A DNA stretch of 64,000 bases, from the NCBI GenBank assembly GCA_965645245.1, contig OZ287071.1, positions 434,001-498,000 on the forward strand. The letters are read 5' to 3'. The notes beneath the pieces were generated by a model. That model was given only the letters and a program-made list of their open reading frames with translations, did not search any database and had not been told where the DNA came from. Shown here in pieces: positions 19,878-29,838 of this stretch. The stretch's first letter is position 1, and each line of letters opens with the position of its first letter. The translations under genes were made by a program, and so were the position numbers. The stretch is from Massalongia carnosa (taxonomy: Eukaryota).

Positions 19878-20649
19878 ATGAACCAGTCGTGTTTTCGATA
19901 TACTTCTTTTCTAGTCTTCGTTGTCGTTCTCATTGTTTATATTGCTTAGCCGAGCGTCGCCTCAGTATTCGTTATAGCCGCCGATTCTGTTTCCGTCAAT
20001 GTTAAATACGAATGCAATCCCACCCTCGGAAGTCCGGACATCGCCAGCTGTGAGAAAGCAATATTTCAATCATGGACTCCGAGCTAATCGTGATGGATCC
20101 TATCAACAAATCATTCAGTAGAGTCAAAGCGTACCGGTTTCGATCTTTTGGTCCTCGATCTATCCATCATTGCTATCAAAAAGAATGCTCACGAAGGCTA
20201 ATAGGAGGCTGTGCTATCGCGGTCGGTACTAATGGCCTTCATGCTACAACATGGAACGTTCTGCGCGGCGTCCTCGATTCTCTTGATGCGCGATGCGTCA
20301 GCAACCCGGCGCTGAAAGGCCACATGGGTGGTACGGCCATTAGCCAGCCATATGGGCCACATCGACTGCGAGACCTTTCCGGTGAATTTATAAACTTCTT
20401 ACCTCTCTCGTCTTTTTCATTTGCCCCGAAGGCAATGTCACTTTTTGCACGCCGCTTTTTTAAAAAAAATTGACCACTAAACGCTCCTACTCGACATCAG
20501 GTCGCGCACCTTTGCCCGTCTTCCCGCCGACATTTGAAATTGTTATTTACAAGGAAGTCGATCACAGCCGGTCCCCTTACGAGACATGCGCGTGGGGCGT
20601 CATATCGAGCCACAAGGGTGTCGTGAAAGGTTGTCTGATCGCCCCATAA
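19878..20649 (+). pseudogene. Disrupted gene for a Cys-containing secreted protein
   Basis: A signal-peptide-like start is followed by in-frame TAG (19947-19949), then YECNPTLGSPDIASCEKA, a frameshift near 20070, GGCAIAV..RCV..GG, a clean intron 20382-20500 and last exon ending ETCAWGV..GCLIAP*. Confidence 0.6.
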
Positions 20650-20892
20650 AGACCCCCATAAAGGGGTTTACAAGTATCCAACGGAGAGATCGGGGAAATT
20701 TATGATTAGATATTGCAGGAGTGTATTGAATTGTTGTATATCAAGGAATACCGTTTTCCTTAAAACGGTATTCCTGGAGTATACAGATTAGTAAAATATT
20801 TTTAGAAAGCTACGTTGGGTTTTCTCACCATTGTATCATCATTCCTGCTGAACGCTTCATTAAAGATGGATCAAAAAGCAAAATCAATTATG

Positions 20893-21013
20893 CAACTCGC
20901 GTGGGACTCGAACCCACAGCCTCCAGATTAGAAGTCTGGCGCTAGTTCATATCAGATTTAATTCCAAATCAAATATGAATTTCAACTTACCGCTACCATT
21001 GCGCCAGCGAGTC
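20893..21013 (-). tRNA. tRNA-Arg (anticodon UCU) with a 49-nt non-canonical intron at position 24/25
   Basis: Removing 20942-20990 gives a 72-nt cloverleaf GACTCGC TG GCGC AATGGTA GCGC G CCAGA CTTCTAA TCTGG AGGCT GTGGG TTCGAGT CCCAC GCGAGTT G with all four stems paired. A and B boxes are intact and T4/T5 runs lie downstream. Confidence 0.93.
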
Positions 21014-21333
21014 AGATTCTGAAATTTATATCCATTTCATCTTGTATATAATATAGTTTGTTTAACATCATTCAATGGTAAAAAGTGTTAGCGTCCGTGG
21101 CGCAGCGCCTAACTTCTTGGAGTTGAGACATGGGTTCATTGATTCCACATTTAACTCTTAGCTACAGTCGAAAACATTATTGACTAGCTTCAAATAACTA
21201 CAAACAACTTGGGTTCTCTATTTAGTATCCTTCCGTCGTTCATGTTGGCCTTTTTATATTTCCATACCTTACTAAAAGCTTCTCCTCTCATGTTTTAGGC
21301 CCCAGCCTCCTTCAGCTCTACTAACGGATTCTC

Positions 21334-24300
21334 ATGCGGCTATCTATGCGCCCAACGCAGCCTGCCCTTGTGGCACTCACCCTTTTGATCTTACCATGGG
21401 CTTCGAATGCCTATGGAAATAACTCGAGAAATTACCTGCTTCAACCTACAGTTTCAGTGTTCGATGACCGGCCGGCAGATTGCCTCCCATGCTTCAATTG
21501 CAATTTGGAAGCCTTTCAATGCGCCCAATTCTCCAGCTGCAACAAATACGATGGCAAGTGTTCTTGTCCCCCCGGCTTTGGGGGAGGGGACTGCTCCCAA
21601 CCAGTCTGTGGCTCGCTTGCGCGTGGTAGAGATCGAGGAATTCGACCGAATGAGGAGTGTGACTGTGATGAAGGCTGGGGAGGTATAAATTGTAATGTCT
21701 GCAAAACGGACGAGGCCTGCAATCCTTTGATGTCTGATAAGACAGGTGGTGTGTGTTACCAAGGTGGAGTCGTGGTGAAGGAGAATCATCAGATGTGTGA
21801 TGTAACCAATAGAAAGATCTTGGATCAACTTAAGGAGAGAAAGCCACAAATTACCTTCTCTTGCAACGGCGGAGAGGAGACGTGCAACTTTCAGTGTATG
21901 TTTCAGCACAAAATTGTCTTTTTTTTTAAAATACTAACTAGGTACAGTTTGGGTTGGGCAGGTTGAATCATTCTACTGCGCCTTAGATACCTGCTCTTTT
22001 AGTGCTAAAAATGAGTATGATAAGAACACTACTGACTACAAGTGTGAAAACATCAAGTGCTCTTGCATCCCTGGTCGAATGCTCTGTGGAGAGGAAGGAT
22101 CCATCGATATTGGCGAGTTTCTGACCGAATCAATCAAAGGGCCCGCATCGCTTTCGTCAGTGTCCACGGAGGGAGACAATAGCCAAGATGGCAGCAAGTT
22201 TGAAGAACCAGCTATGAACGACTTGATCAAAAACATCTTCGGCGATGAAAGTATTACCCTGAAATGTAACTCAGGAGAGTGTTTGTACTTGACGGACGTT
22301 CCAGGTTACGCAAGGCCTGTCAAATCGATTAACACACCACTGATCGCTGGCGTTATCGCTGGATGTGGTCTCTTTGTTGTCCTGGTGATATTGATGGTAT
22401 GGTTCCTTTCAAGGAGGTCTTTTAAGAAATACGGACCTATACATTTATCCGAAGACTCAGACGATGAGAACGCACAATTAATGCTCGAGCATAAGCCAGC
22501 TTCTTTACAGTTTGAGAATGTTTCCTACCACCTAAATGGCAAGCAGATTCTCTCAGGAATTCAAGGGATTTCTTTGCCAGGCCAGCTGATGGCCATTATG
22601 GGTGCCTCCGGTGCTGGAAAAACAACGTTTCTCGATATCTTAGCCAGAAAAAACAAACGAGGAGTAACTGAGGGAAACTTTTACGTTAATGGGGAGAAGG
22701 TGCTAGATGACGAGTATCGAAGTGTTATTGGTTTCGTAGATCAGGATGATACCATGCTCCCTACACTTACGGTGCACGAAACGATCTTGACCAGTGCTTT
22801 ACTGCGGCTACCTCGGGATATGAGTACATCAACGAAAGAACAAAGAGTGTATGAAGTCGAAAAGCAACTTGGGATCTATCACATCAAAGACCAGCTAATT
22901 GGGTCAGAAGAGGGCAGTGGCCGAGGAATCTCAGGAGGCGAGAAGCGGAGAGTTGGGATCGCTTGTGAATTGGTAACAAGCCCCAGCATCCTCTTCTTGG
23001 ACGAACCGACCAGCGGGCTAGATGCGTTCAACGCTTTCAATGTCGTAGAATGTCTTGTCAGCCTTGCCAAAGACTACAACCGAACTGTTATATTTACCAT
23101 ACACCAGCCTCGCTCTAATATTGTGGCGCTTTTTGATCACCTTATACTTTTAGCTAAGGGTAGAACGGTCTATTCTGGCCCATTCTCCAATTGCCAAGAA
23201 TATTTCGATCATATTGGCTATCCTTGTCCGTCGGGATTTAATATTGCGGATTACCTTGTGGATCTCACAATGCATGCAGAAACAGCACATACCCCGTTGG
23301 AAGAAACCGGTCCGACAACGTATGATAGAGGCACGGAAGGCATCCGAACTGTCAACAGCAGCGTGCGTGCCATCAAATCAATAGCGAGTGCCTCCAACAT
23401 GAGTTTGGAAAATAGCAGCTACGGAAGTCAGAATGAGTCAACCTGGAGACCAAAAACAAAACGAAGACAATCGCTTAAACAGCAACAAGATCGTAAATTG
23501 TATACTCGGAAGAAGAGCGGCGGAGGGGAGCTCTCTCTAACGCCATGGACCGATGATGAGAGTTCAGATCTAAATAACATAGCTGGAAGTACCCGGGACT
23601 GGCTTAGATTGTCGCGTCAACAGGGGTCGGTTCCCCCCCAGATTCTGGACGATCCGCACCAACTTCCTCCACCCAGCGCTGGCACTGGGACGGGGCTAGA
23701 TGAACTAGTCTCCAGTTACGCTTCGTCAGATGTGGCCAGCTCGATCCACGATGACATCATCTCTGCTTTAAACAGCGCTGCAAACGCAAATGGTTCTACA
23801 AATGGTCAATCCAATGGGGCCTTTGTTTCTGGAACGATGAAAAGCTATCGTCGGGTGGGCTTGTTTGGCCAATTTATGATCCTGTCACGGCGGACATGGC
23901 GAAATCTATACAGAAACCCCATGCTAATGCTTACTCACTACGCAATTGCTATCCTTCTTGCTGTCCTTTCTGGCTACTTGTTCTACGGTCTGACCGATGA
24001 CATCAAGGGATTCCAGAACCGCTTAGGTCTGTTCTTCTTCGTCCTTGCCCTTTTTGGTTTCAGCACCTTGACGTCTCTCACTGTTTTCTCTTCCGAAAGA
24101 CTACTGTTTATTAGAGAAAGGGCCAATGGCTATTACTCGCCAATTACCTACTTCGCGGCGAAAGTTGTTTTCGATATTATACCTCTACGCCTAATACCTC
24201 CTATCATCATGGGCGCTATTGTGTATCCAATGTCTGGCTTAGTGCCGGAATGGCCGTTATTCTTTAAATTTCTCCTAATATTGGTTCTATTCAACCTCGC

Positions 24301-24740
24301 AGCGTCAGCAATCTGTCTCTTCATTGGTATCGTATTTAAAGATGGAGGTGTCGCTAACCTGATTGGGAGCTTGGTGATGCTCTTCAGCTTGCTGTTTGCA
24401 GGCCTACTACTCAATCGCGATGCAATACCAGGCGCAGCAGCGTGGCTTCAGACAGTAAGCTATTGCAGTCTTTCTCTATTAACCTTTTTGCTGACGATTC
24501 CAGCTCTCTATCTTTCATTATGGCTTCGAGGGTCTGATCGTCAATGAGGTCAAATATCTTACGCTAATCGATCATAAATACGGGCTTGATATTGAAGTGC
24601 CAGGCGCTTCGATTCTCAGCGCCTTTGGTTTTGATGTTAGTGCTTTTTGGGCCGATGTCATTGGCCTTGCTATTTTCTCCAGCGCATTTATCATCATCGC
24701 ATATGGCGCAATGCATATGCTGCTAATAGAAAAGCGCTGA
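21334..24740 (+). CDS. ADP1: ABCG half-transporter with N-terminal EGF-like repeats (Adp1-like), 3 exons
   Basis: Signal peptide, Cys-rich EGF repeats, TM helix, Walker [30 protein letters not shown]-terminal ABC2 membrane domain ending LIEKR*. Confidence 0.93.
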
Positions 24741-26369
24741 TTTCCGCTTCGGACATTATCTATGTAACAATTCTGGAAGTTATATTAGGAGGAGCTCTGA
24801 CCACAACATAATGATTTGTCTTTTACGGTTAAGCATTACCAGGTATATTACATTACTCATTCACAGCGAGCGTAATTGACTTGCGAATCATCAACAACTG
24901 TTTATCGCCACGTTTAAAGTAAACTTGAGCTGTGAAACAGGCATTACGTGCGCTTCACAAGTGGATCTTACTTGAAACCAGAGGCCCTCCACCATCGCTG
25001 CGCCTCCGACGTTGCAAGCAAATGTTTCAACCTCCTTTCTCCAGCGCGATTCACCGCACTATTCAATAACCTACAGGCTACGAACGATGAAAGCTCAACT
25101 TGAGAACGCTCACCCCCTCACAGTTCTTACACAACCTAGTTATCTCAACCAACTTAGTATTTCCCGGTGTACCACCACCAAACGCCACGACTCATTTCAA
25201 GAAAACCCGTCCACTTCCCATCTCCACTTCCGCTTTCCCAGATTCCTCCACCATCTCGCTCACCTATACTATTATCAACATCTCTTTCGCCCTTTCTCCC
25301 CTCTCGACCCCCTCCAGCCTAAAGCCCTACCCCTTGAGAACCCGCAACCCCCACTTGTTTCCCTCCCCCGAACCAACGAAATGTCCAGAAAACGTTACCA
25401 CGGTTTCTTCGGCCTCTATTCAAACCTCTTCGCTCTGGCGTTCGCGGCTCTGACCATTATATTCAAGTGATTTGCCCAAACGCCTGCTGTTCCACAACCT
25501 TCCACATGATCCTTTTGCCCCCTCCCCCCTTTTTCCCGTGTCATTCCCGGTTTCTCCAGCCTTTCGTTCTACGCTCTTTTGAACTCTACGCACCAAACCG
25601 CTCAGCCAACTCCTATCTCCTACCCCCATTACACCCCTTTTCCTGGTCTTCCTCGCCCCCGTCTCCCATGTATGTTCTTCCCCTCCTTCTCACCCCCCAA
25701 TCCCGAACCTCCTTCCCTCCTACTTCTACCCTTCGCACTTCCCTTTTCAACCCATCCCCAATCCTTTTCTCCACCATGCTAGCAAACCTTGCCTCCTACC
25801 CATGTTAGCTCTCCTAACCCGGCGGAATCGTCAACTCTACAGTACACCCTGGCTCAAACCCGAATCCTGCCGCCGACACCGGGAAGCAGCAGGGAGGGCG
25901 ACACAAGGTTGATGTGCCAGGGGCAGGTAATGAGAGTTGCAATAGGTATATATACATACTTTAGGGGGAAAGTGTTTAGGATTTTTGGTCAAATGATGGG
26001 TTCTTATTTTTTGTATTTAGGGGGTTTACTCTGTATGGGTATGCTTTAGGGAGGGAATAACTTAGCACGCTCAAAGCGCTATCCTGTTTTGGGGTTTCAG
26101 TTCGACAGTCGTGCGGAGGCTCCGGGCGCAATTTTTTTGTGGCAAATTTTCGCAAATGGAAAAGCAAGCTCCTGGTATGACTAAAGGTTGATGTCTTGGG
26201 CAATATTACAGCTTCCTTTTGCTTGTGGAGTCATGTCTTTCATGTCGATGAACAATCAACGAGCCAGTTTATACATGATTTCCACCACCACCCGAGTCTC
26301 AGGCTGTCTGCGTATTCTCCCATCCTCTCCATTCCCCCCCGTTCCACCCCCCTTTCATCCAAGCAGCCC

Positions 26370-27575: not shown

Positions 27576-29838
27576 ATGGGTACAGGTAAGAAAGAAAAGG
27601 TTCGGAAGGAGAGGCAGGGAAAGGTGGGTGATGGTATGGCCAATGTCAAAACTAAAGGCGAGAACTTTTATCGGTATGGATTGGGTCGTCCTTCTAAATA
27701 GGAAGTGGACTATGGTATCTGATAATATGTATGTATCTAGGTCAGCGAAGAAAGCGAAGACGCTGAATATGTTCAATGATGGTAAAGCGCAAAGAAACGC
27801 AGCTGGAAAGGTTACCAAAGCCGCCTCCTTCCAGTCCCGCGAGCTGCCCAAAGCTCGTGTGGAGCCAAATCGAAAGTGGTTCGGAAATACACGTGTGATC
27901 TCACAAGAAGCTTTGAATTCGTTTCGGAACGCAATGGTCGCGCGAGCTTCCGATCCTTACCAGGTTCTTCTTAAATCGAACAAGCTTCCTATGAACCTCG
28001 TCCGAGAACCACTGGGAAAGAACGGTTTGAAGCAACATCAAGCAAAAATTGCAGTGGAGTCTGCGCCGTTTGGCGACACTTTTGGGCCGAAAGCGCAAAG
28101 GAAGCGGGTAAAGCTTAGCGTTGGCTCTCTCGAAGACCTCGCTGGCGAGTCTACTAAGATGCACGACACATACCTGGAGCGTCTAGAGCAAGCCAAGCTG
28201 TTGAGTGGGACGCCAAATGCCAAAGAAAATATCGGAGAAGCAGTCCCTGAAGAAGCTGTGCTCTTAGCGGCGAAAGAGCCCATCTTCTCAAAAGGTCAAA
28301 GTAAACGAATATGGAATGAGCTATACAAAGTAATCGATGCCTCGGACGTTGTGATTCACGTGCTAGACGCACGAGATCCTCTAGGGACGCGCTGTCGGAG
28401 TGTTGAGAAATATATTCGTGAAGAGGCACCTCATAAGCATCTGATATTCGTTCTAAATAAATGCGACTTAGTACCCACGGGTGTAGCAGTAAGTCTGGCG
28501 GGTATATTTCATTCCAGTTCAAGCCTAAACCTCATTCCATCGTTAAGTCAAGGCTCCTTCCAGCATATTGTGCTTTTACTCATGGAGTGCGTCTGTTACA
28601 ACTTTGGTAGATTAAATCTTATCCGCTGTGCATGGCTTTCTTGGTCAGGCACAGATTACTCGACGTTTTGGAGAGTCTATCGTGCAGGATTTGGTATTGT
28701 TGCATTTTTGAGTTGAATCCTTCTCCGCTGCACTGGTAGTGGATAGGTGGAGGTATTCTTAGTAATGCTTCATACATCGTTTCATTTATAGGATATTTCA
28801 TAGAGGCTTGACTGACTCCTTCCACAGGCTTCGTGGGTACGTTCACTCTCCAAAGATTACCCTACTCTTGCATTTCATGCGTCTATAACCAACTCATTTG
28901 GGAAAGGATCTCTTATTCAACTTCTCCGCCAATTCTCCTCCCTTCATTCTGATCGTAAGCAAATTTCCGTTGGATTCATCGGCTACCCCAATACTGGCAA
29001 ATCATCCATTATCAACACCCTCCGAAAGAAAAAGGTCTGCACCGTAGCCCCCATACCAGGCGAAACTAAAATATGGCAATACATCACCTTGATGAAACGC
29101 ATCTATCTGATTGATTGTCCCGGAGTGGTGCCCCCAAGTAACAACGATTCTCAAGAAGATATTCTCCTGCGCGGGGTCGTGAGGGTCGAGAATGTGGAAA
29201 ACCCGGAGCAGTACATCGCGGCGGTCTTAAAGAAGACAAAGCCGCAACATATTCAGCGTACGTATGATGTCAAAGGCTTCGAAACGCCTACGGAATTCCT
29301 GGAACTACTTGCCCGGAAGGGTGGCAGGTTGCTTAAGGGTGGGGAGGCGGACGTGGATGGCGTTGCGAAGATGGTGCTAAACGACTTCTTACGGGGCAAG
29401 ATTCCATGGTTCACACCACCACCCATCATTGAAGGGCAGGAAGAGAAGGGTATCGAGGGCCGGAAAGGAGCCCTAGGGGAAATGGGACGGGTGAGGAAAA
29501 CAGAGGATGCCCCATCTACGGTTGATGGGTCTACGGTTGATGGGGCGCCTGCGGCTTCGTCAAAGGGCGACTCAATATCAGATCCGCCATCAGTAATTAT
29601 CGACGAAGACCAAGATGAGTTCGACGGCTTTGACGATGAGACGCAAGACGCGGACAAGGCTTCTTCGGAAGGAGGTTCATCGCCGTCGCTATCGGAGGAC
29701 GAGACCGATAGCTCCCTAAATGGGGGCAGAGTTACCCTACAACCCCCGATACACGAAGAAGCTGAAGCGGACGAGAACCCATCCAGCGAGCTGGGAGAAC
29801 CCCCGCCGCGGTCTCTGAAACGCCGCCGGAAAGGTTGA
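27576..29838 (+). CDS. NOG2: Nucleolar GTP-binding protein 2 (pre-60S GTPase), 3 exons
   Basis: [35 protein letters not shown] and IDCPG (circularly permuted GTPase order); second intron 28489-28827. Confidence 0.96.
28537..28779 (+). ncRNA. Intronic box H/ACA snoRNA, snR191/U19-like
   Basis: Lies in the 339-nt NOG2 intron. Pocket AGTCA (28546-28550) plus GTTAC (28595-28599) is complementary to LSU helix-69 GUAAC-U-A-UGACU; H box AGATTA at 28609, 14 nt from the pocket; ACA at 28774-28776. The 5' end is approximate. Confidence 0.85.

Follow-up and report, generated by a model that had tools for sequence, protein, structure and literature searches.

A probable spliceosomal intron in the D-stem of a nuclear tRNA-Arg(UCU) gene of a lichen-forming fungus

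In a lichen-forming ascomycete, a nuclear tRNA-Arg(UCU) gene is split within its D-stem by an insert of 49 nucleotides (nt). The gene is likely to be functional, and the insert likely to be a real U2-type (GT–AG) spliceosomal intron. Eukaryotic nuclear tRNA introns lie at position 37/38 and are removed by a protein-only pathway of SEN endonuclease and ligase. The insert described here is probably an ectopic spliceosomal intron in a structural RNA gene, new in being in a tRNA, and it may be excised by the spliceosome. A full-text literature search, which covered few subscription journals, returned no description of a spliceosomal intron in a tRNA gene; its sole phrase match, in the accessible text of that source, was ‘non-spliceosomal tRNA introns’ (bioRxiv 10.64898/2026.07.09.736142). 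The gene lies in a stretch of 64 kb, which we refer to as the window.

Structure of the split gene and signals of the insert

The gene is encoded on the minus strand (Table 1). In the order of the elements listed there, exon 1 (21013 to 20991) reads GACTCGC, TG, GCGC, AATGGTA and GCG, and exon 2 reads C, G, CCAGA, CTTCTAA, TCTGG, AGGCT, GTGGG, TTCGAGT, CCCAC, GCGAGTT and G. An earlier note on this DNA had described a complete 72-nt tRNA with fully paired exons, intact A and B boxes and a T-run terminator, interrupted by an insert with a GTAAGT donor, a CTGAT branch motif followed by 10 nt and a TAG acceptor. Re-reading the sequence showed its coordinates and letters to be correct, and every one of these elements is present. 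When the two exons were joined by script, ARAGORN returned a 72-nt tRNA-Arg(tct) with a perfect cloverleaf, in which every stem is paired (7 acceptor, 4 D, 5 anticodon and 5 T pairs) and G1–U72 is the sole wobble. The insert interrupts the 3′ strand of the D-stem behind its third base, rather than the anticodon loop at 37/38; the site is numbered Sprinzl 24/25 because position 17 is absent. Because a G stands on both sides, the junction can slide by one base (23/24 or 24/25), and of these two registers only 24/25 gives GT…AG.

Table 1 Positions of the split tRNA gene, its signals and the neighbouring transporter gene in the window
Feature	Position	Strand	Description and basis
Whole tRNA-Arg(UCU) gene	20893..21013	-	121 nt with the insert, 72 nt without; sequence and ARAGORN
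Exon 1	20991..21013	-	23 nt; acceptor 5′ strand, U8 and G9, D-stem 5′ strand, D-loop, bases 1–3 of the D-stem 3′ strand; sequence, ARAGORN
Insert	20942..20990	-	49 nt; U2-type intron signals; longest T run 3
Exon 2	20893..20941	-	49 nt; last D-stem base, G26, anticodon arm, variable loop AGGCT, T arm, acceptor 3′ strand, discriminator G; sequence, ARAGORN, Rfam tRNA match 20901–20944
Anticodon TCT	20932–20930	-	within exon 2
Candidate 5′ splice site	20985..20990	-	G|GTAAGT; sequence
Candidate branch site	20951..20955	-	CTGAT; branch A at 20952, then 10 nt; sequence
Candidate 3′ splice site	20942..20944	-	TAG; sequence
Internal hairpin of the insert	20946..20979	-	14 pairs, intron positions 12–45; fold prediction
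A box	20996..21006	-	TGGCGCAATGG; tRNA positions 8–19, untouched by the insert; sequence
B box	20904..20914	-	GGTTCGAGTCC; sequence
T4 and T5 runs	20873..20883	-	10–20 nt past the discriminator; Pol III terminator-like
TATA-like element	21045..21055	-	TATATTATATA; 32–42 nt upstream of the mature 5′ end
Second TATA-like element	21025–21030	-	TATAAA; 12–17 nt upstream
ABCG-type transporter gene	21346..24740	+	divergent neighbour; tblastn with homologue P0016
Transporter intron	21896–21947	+	52 nt; GTATGT..CTAAC..CAG; tblastn, full-length homologue P0016
Transporter intron	24455–24503	+	49 nt; GTAAGC..CTGAC..CAG; tblastn, full-length homologue P0016

The splice signals of the insert are far beyond chance. 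We searched the window for 49-mers that start with GTAAGT, close with YAG and have CTRAY 7–20 nt before their last base; of the 127,904 49-mers on both strands, the only one with all three signals is the insert itself, and GTAAGT as such occurs 20 times on both strands. The features that mark the insert as U2-type are the donor, the CTRAY branch motif, the YAG acceptor, a length within the range of the mRNA introns of this organism and a product that is restored by exact removal.

The adjoining transporter gene provides a local standard. Its two introns are the homology-verified introns of the window, and the joined coding sequence is open for 1098 codons with a single terminal stop. The branch A is followed by 10 and 9 nt in these introns, compared with 10 nt in the insert. 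A cruder scan that joined open reading frames (ORFs) across the window gave 13 candidate introns, 5 of which are 49–54 nt long with CTRAY 9–21 nt from the end. The earlier likening of the insert in length to the mRNA introns of neighbouring genes holds for the transporter introns, and in length and in all three signals the insert is typical of the introns of this genome. The best source-named matches of the transporter all come from lichen-forming ascomycetes, among them Stereocaulon virgatum, Lecanora helva, Physcia stellaris, Bacidia gigantensis and many Teloschistaceae, at 78–84% identity.

The surrounding sequence has the layout of a Pol III gene. A cloverleaf, an A box, a B box and a downstream T run together point to a nuclear tRNA gene transcribed by Pol III. 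The two boxes were identified by their consensus sequences, and the TATA-like upstream elements presumably have a Pol III role, as in the promoters of fission-yeast Pol III genes. The insert widens the spacing from A to B box to around 83 nt, compared with around 34 nt without it. Avoidance of Pol III T runs within the insert was considered as evidence and dropped: the insert has no T4, but the same is true of 50% of its shuffles, so the absence is not significant, and 81% of the shuffles have no T5.

The tRNA gene is intergenic. Its distance of 333 nt from the start codon of the divergent Pol II gene would suit a reading in which the spliceosome acts on a Pol II transcript, namely a non-coding minus-strand RNA whose start lies in a promoter region shared by the ABC transporter gene; splicing would take place during its transcription, after which RNase P and RNase Z would release the tRNA. 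Pol II transcripts are also the normal substrate of the spliceosome, as stated in accessible passages of PMC8527467. However, the gene has kept the full Pol III set of A box, B box, TATA-like element and T runs, there is no minus-strand ORF of at least 100 amino acids near it, and U6 is a Pol III transcript that can be spliced (accessible passages of PMC5855946). We consider a Pol II precursor quite improbable.

Standard tools do not report the gene, as the earlier note had anticipated. By default, ARAGORN found 0 tRNA genes across the 64-kb window; with its option for introns in the anticodon loop, it miscalled the locus as a tRNA-Ile(gat) with a 27-nt intron. The Rfam match is limited to 20901–20944, approximately exon 2 alone, at 30.8 bits compared with a gathering score of 29. 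What is apparently the sole tRNA-Arg(UCU) gene here is thus invisible to tools of the ARAGORN or tRNAscan type, which do not model such introns, and the tRNA gene sets of lichen fungi, and perhaps of other eukaryotes, may seem incomplete for this reason.

Three further features of the window were noted. An inverted repeat at 20741–20778 (17 nt, 4-nt loop, 94% complementary, TCAAGGAATACCGTTTT / AAAACGGTATTCCTGGA) lies around 115–150 nt downstream of the tRNA 3′ end. On the plus strand, 21078–21165 shares short collinear blocks with the tRNA (TGGCGCA, GCGCC..CTTCT, TGGGTTC and TCCAC), and a decayed inverted copy of the tRNA was suggested there by these blocks and an inverted repeat; its alignment ranked 224 and 38 among 5,101 window pieces under two scorings and was not among the top matches under a third scheme, and we attribute the likeness to chance. 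Farther away, 28535–28779 on the plus strand matches the H/ACA small nucleolar RNA family snR191 (RF01263) over its full length (model 1–273) with 38.5 bits, below the gathering score of 46, and an E value of 3.1e-05; the fungus probably encodes a diverged guide for pseudouridylation, of the snR191 type, at this place.

Folding of the precursor and other classes of intron

An intron cut by the tRNA endonuclease would be expected to carry a bulge-helix-bulge (BHB) motif at its junctions. We enumerated such motifs in both junction registers, allowing each cut to be preceded by 1–3 bulged bases and the central helix to measure 3–5 bp. A fully paired 4-bp helix with two 3-nt bulges does not form in either register, which bears out the view of the earlier note that no BHB spans the junctions; nearest to one are a 3-bp UAG/CUA helix with uneven bulges and 4-bp helices with a mismatch. 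In its predicted fold of lowest free energy (−42.5 kcal/mol, z −4.16), the precursor of 121 nt has the last intron G paired within a CUGGCGC/GCGCCAG helix and not bulged. We therefore rejected membership of the SEN/BHB class of tRNA-endonuclease introns, given a break in the D-stem at 24/25 or 23/24, rather than at 37/38, and no BHB.

There remains removal by a tRNA-splicing endonuclease or another nuclease at a relaxed motif or at a hairpin, followed by a tRNA ligase, in which case GT–AG would be incidental. Non-canonical tRNA introns, including those of the D-arm, exist in Archaea, red algae and nucleomorphs, and the insert does form a predicted hairpin (−10.4 kcal/mol, z −2.84) that is more stable than 199 of 200 shuffles, 1 of the 200 being as stable. 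But the non-canonical introns known elsewhere are defined by BHB motifs, whereas neither register here has a BHB or near-BHB; and eukaryal tRNA endonucleases measure from the mature domain to 37/38 (all three statements on known introns and enzymes from accessible passages of PMC3978253). An incidental triple signal has odds of less than 1 in 100,000, and a strain variant described below breaks a pair of the hairpin. Such a nuclease seems to us highly improbable.

Under spliceosomal excision, the predicted fold may help or hinder. For the precursor, the prediction leaves most of donor positions −1 to +4 free of pairing and pairs +5 and +6, and it pairs the branch motif CTGAT inside the stem of the intron hairpin. 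The hairpin would bring donor and acceptor close together, yet must open for U2 pairing. The pairing of the branch motif and of +5 and +6 counts against excision, as does a 5′ exon as short as 23 nt plus the leader.

Two further intron classes were set aside. A self-splicing intron of group I or II was rejected on the length of 49 nt and because no Rfam intron family matched at the gathering score or at E values up to 0.5. Origin as an introner, an introner-like or MITE-derived element or another mobile element was rejected on the lack of further copies, terminal repeats and a target-site duplication: the window has no other copy of the hairpin core with up to 3 mismatches, no other contig in runs X1 or X4 is at least 80% alike over the insert, and there is no flanking direct repeat beyond one shared G.

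Copy number, strains and demand for the tRNA

DNA contigs of four runs (X1, X3, X4 and X5) were aligned to positions 20000–25000 at 80% likeness. X1 and X3 represent the same organism (depths 447 and 823), X5 holds identical DNA at low depth, and X4 is another strain at depth 25, with 18 substitutions and 3 indels in 5 kb (around 0.36% divergence). One run containing this DNA is labelled as a lichen metagenome. We take all four runs to be DNA because they have no joints even at the verified mRNA introns, the intron at 24455–24503 being covered unspliced by X5 record 27. Each of the four runs has contigs with the insert, which occurs in two strains; it is real DNA rather than an artefact of assembly. 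An insert-free form, visible as a joint, does not occur among the records listed for these runs (6 of 6 for X1, 5 of 5 for X4, 8 of 12 for X3 and 8 of 23 for X5).

The strongest rival to a spliced gene is a dead copy, in which an intron was put into the tRNA gene by reverse splicing or transposition and stays unspliced, AGA being read by another, diverged or undetected tRNA-Arg(UCU). An intron-derived insert would bring its splice signals whether spliced or not. The exons, however, show no decay, as the earlier note had argued: the cloverleaf is flawless, with every stem complete, and neither the two promoter boxes nor the terminator are damaged. The sole fungal-depth record over the tRNA in X1 and X4, the runs with all records listed, is the contig with the insert. 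Assembled from 31-mers, these contigs (31.6 kb and 22.4 kb) cross the exons unbroken, so a second gene sharing the 49-nt exon 2 is not possible. Other pieces over 20900–20943 have depths of 2–26 and 4–7 mismatches (83–89% alike); several have an encoded CCA and thus come from other organisms of the thallus, and that pieces this unlike were picked up indicates that detection was sensitive enough.

A tRNA pseudogene was accordingly rejected on the flawless exons and the lack, at fungal depth, of a paralogue at least 80% alike. The single-copy argument covers copies of at least that likeness; a strongly diverged second tRNA-Arg(UCU), or a copy in X3 or X5 records beyond those listed, would escape it. 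The check proposed earlier, a search for an intron-less tRNA-Arg(UCU) gene, was thus answered in part: none appears at fungal depth among the same-species contigs listed, at a likeness of 80% or more. Within one fungal tRNA family, gene copies are as a rule nearly identical, which also speaks against a dead copy backed by a diverged paralogue. The insert is, moreover, shared by both strains. Concerted evolution of tRNAs is mentioned in accessible passages of PMC5832005. On balance, a dead copy appears to us unlikely.

The strains differ little over the gene. In X4, none of the 72 exon bases and none of the three splice signals is altered, but with around 0.3 changes expected in 72 nt the comparison has no statistical power and cannot reveal purifying selection, which leaves room for a dead copy. 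The one interior change of the insert, at 20970 (C>T on the plus strand; G to A at intron position 21), breaks a G–C pair of the hairpin. Outside the gene, X4 has a 6-nt insertion, AAAATC, at 20835, 58 nt downstream, and substitutions at 21030 and 21044 in the TATA-like region; among the changes at 20835, 21030, 21044 and 21080 there is also a 1-nt deletion.

The same contigs gave two observations on the transporter gene. In X1 and X4, a contig of almost 5 kb shares two exact 18-nt pieces with the transporter start (21328–21345 and 21524–21541) at around 4.7 to 6 times the fungal depth (2091 compared with 447 in X1; 155 compared with 25 in X4); it could be organelle DNA or an element in many copies, with a motif that is short or shared by chance. 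X5 contigs diverge from the window at 23567 and 22549, in transporter exon 2. The last bases of one of them, immediately ahead of 23567, are ...GACTAACGTAG and resemble an intron end, at a point where the window has continuous coding sequence; this break may reflect a difference in intron presence or absence in a related fungus of the sample.

Pattern searches in other collections returned no orthologue. The end of exon 1 and the start of exon 2 separated by N{38,68} gave 0 matches in metagenome contigs and 0 in prokaryote genome contigs, and the anticodon arm, AGGCT and T arm in succession gave 0 in genome contigs and 0 in viral contigs. With NNNNN in place of AGGCT, 44 metagenome loci matched. 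All 42 that had upstream sequence are intron-less and none has the AGGCT variable loop; many lie beside another tRNA gene or come from marine samples, and they are not relatives of the lichen fungus.

Demand for the tRNA appears substantial. AGA is the commonest arginine codon of the transporter gene (15 of 49) and accounts for 88 of the 504 arginine codons in the long ORFs of the window; to our knowledge, it is read, by the decoding rules, solely by the UCU anticodon. Removal of the insert is argued for because this is an apparently single, flawless gene for a needed tRNA, and the gene is probably both needed and spliced.

If the insert is a spliceosomal intron of a working gene, as we favour, its sequence signals suggest the following route. 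Pol III would transcribe from the intact A and B boxes and stop at the T runs, and the acceptor and T arms are predicted to fold in the precursor. U1 would pair with G|GUAAGU, and U2 with CUGAU once the AU-rich intron hairpin opens. The spliceosome would then join ...GGUAGCG to CGCCAGAC..., completing the D-stem, and end processing and CCA addition would proceed as usual. The intron itself may have been gained ectopically, for example by reverse splicing into an abundant RNA, as discussed for U6 and rRNA. We raise more tentatively, and with some doubt, the idea that an essential Pol III tRNA of lichen fungi depends on the spliceosome for its maturation: with a single gene as the sole reader of AGA, AGA decoding and translation rate would be tied to spliceosome capacity. 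The growth-throttling role proposed for ectopic rDNA introns of lichens would then extend to tRNA, and a hidden class of tRNA genes skipped by standard finders would be implied.

Comparison with introns of other non-coding RNAs

Were the favoured reading of a spliceosomal intron to hold, tRNA would join the short list of RNAs matured by the spliceosome (U6, U1, U2, U5, U3 and rRNA) and would be a second class of Pol III transcript that is spliced. The gene would allow a natural test of whether introns are gained through reverse splicing into abundant RNAs outside the spliceosome. A split tRNA would also be in keeping with the peculiar biology of lichen fungi: their rDNA is rich in introns that depend on host machinery.

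The precedents that the earlier note had named are all in print; they are cited here from the accessible passages of each source. Fungal U6, U1, U2, U5 and rRNA genes carry spliceosomal introns, with reverse splicing discussed as their origin (PMC5855946, which cites Tani and Ohshima 1989, 1991 and Canzler et al. 2016 for the U6 introns of fission yeast and other fungi). Spliceosomal introns also occur in fungal U3 genes (PMC5832005) and, ectopically, in the rDNA of lichen fungi, and yeast removed one of the latter from Pol I transcripts (PMC8527467, which cites Bhattacharya et al. 2000 for such introns and covers work on Cladonia grayi).

The U6 introns resemble the present case: in both, a short GT–AG intron with canonical donor, branch and acceptor interrupts the gene of a small, structured fungal non-coding RNA made by Pol III. 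The sequence of U6 introns is otherwise unconserved, and they are thought to arise by reverse splicing, for which U6, unlike tRNA, has an obvious route, being in the catalytic centre of the spliceosome. U6 introns are also backed by RNA data and by many species, whereas the putative tRNA intron is known from the DNA of one locus in one species and two strains.

The rDNA introns of lichen fungi come from the same fungal group, are likewise of spliceosome type and lie in an RNA of the translation apparatus that is not made by Pol II and needs their removal for function. They differ in host and in evidence: the host is a Pol I rRNA, they are found in many taxa and their removal has been shown, whereas the tRNA case concerns a 72-nt Pol III tRNA and is read from DNA alone.

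The introns of U3 genes, like the insert described here, have canonical splice and branch motifs and break up a stem in a structured non-coding RNA; their presence varies between close relatives. The host RNA is a different one, proof has come from experiments in S. cerevisiae and N. crassa, and a single 5′ stem-loop accounts for 133 of 138 U3 introns (PMC5832005).

The BHB introns in tRNA genes of Archaea, Cyanidioschyzon merolae and nucleomorphs resemble the insert in lying outside 37/38, the D-arm included, and in being missed by finders (PMC3978253). Those introns, however, have a bulge-helix-bulge at their junctions and are cut by the tRNA endonuclease, whereas the insert in tRNA-Arg(UCU) has no such motif and carries GT, branch and AG.
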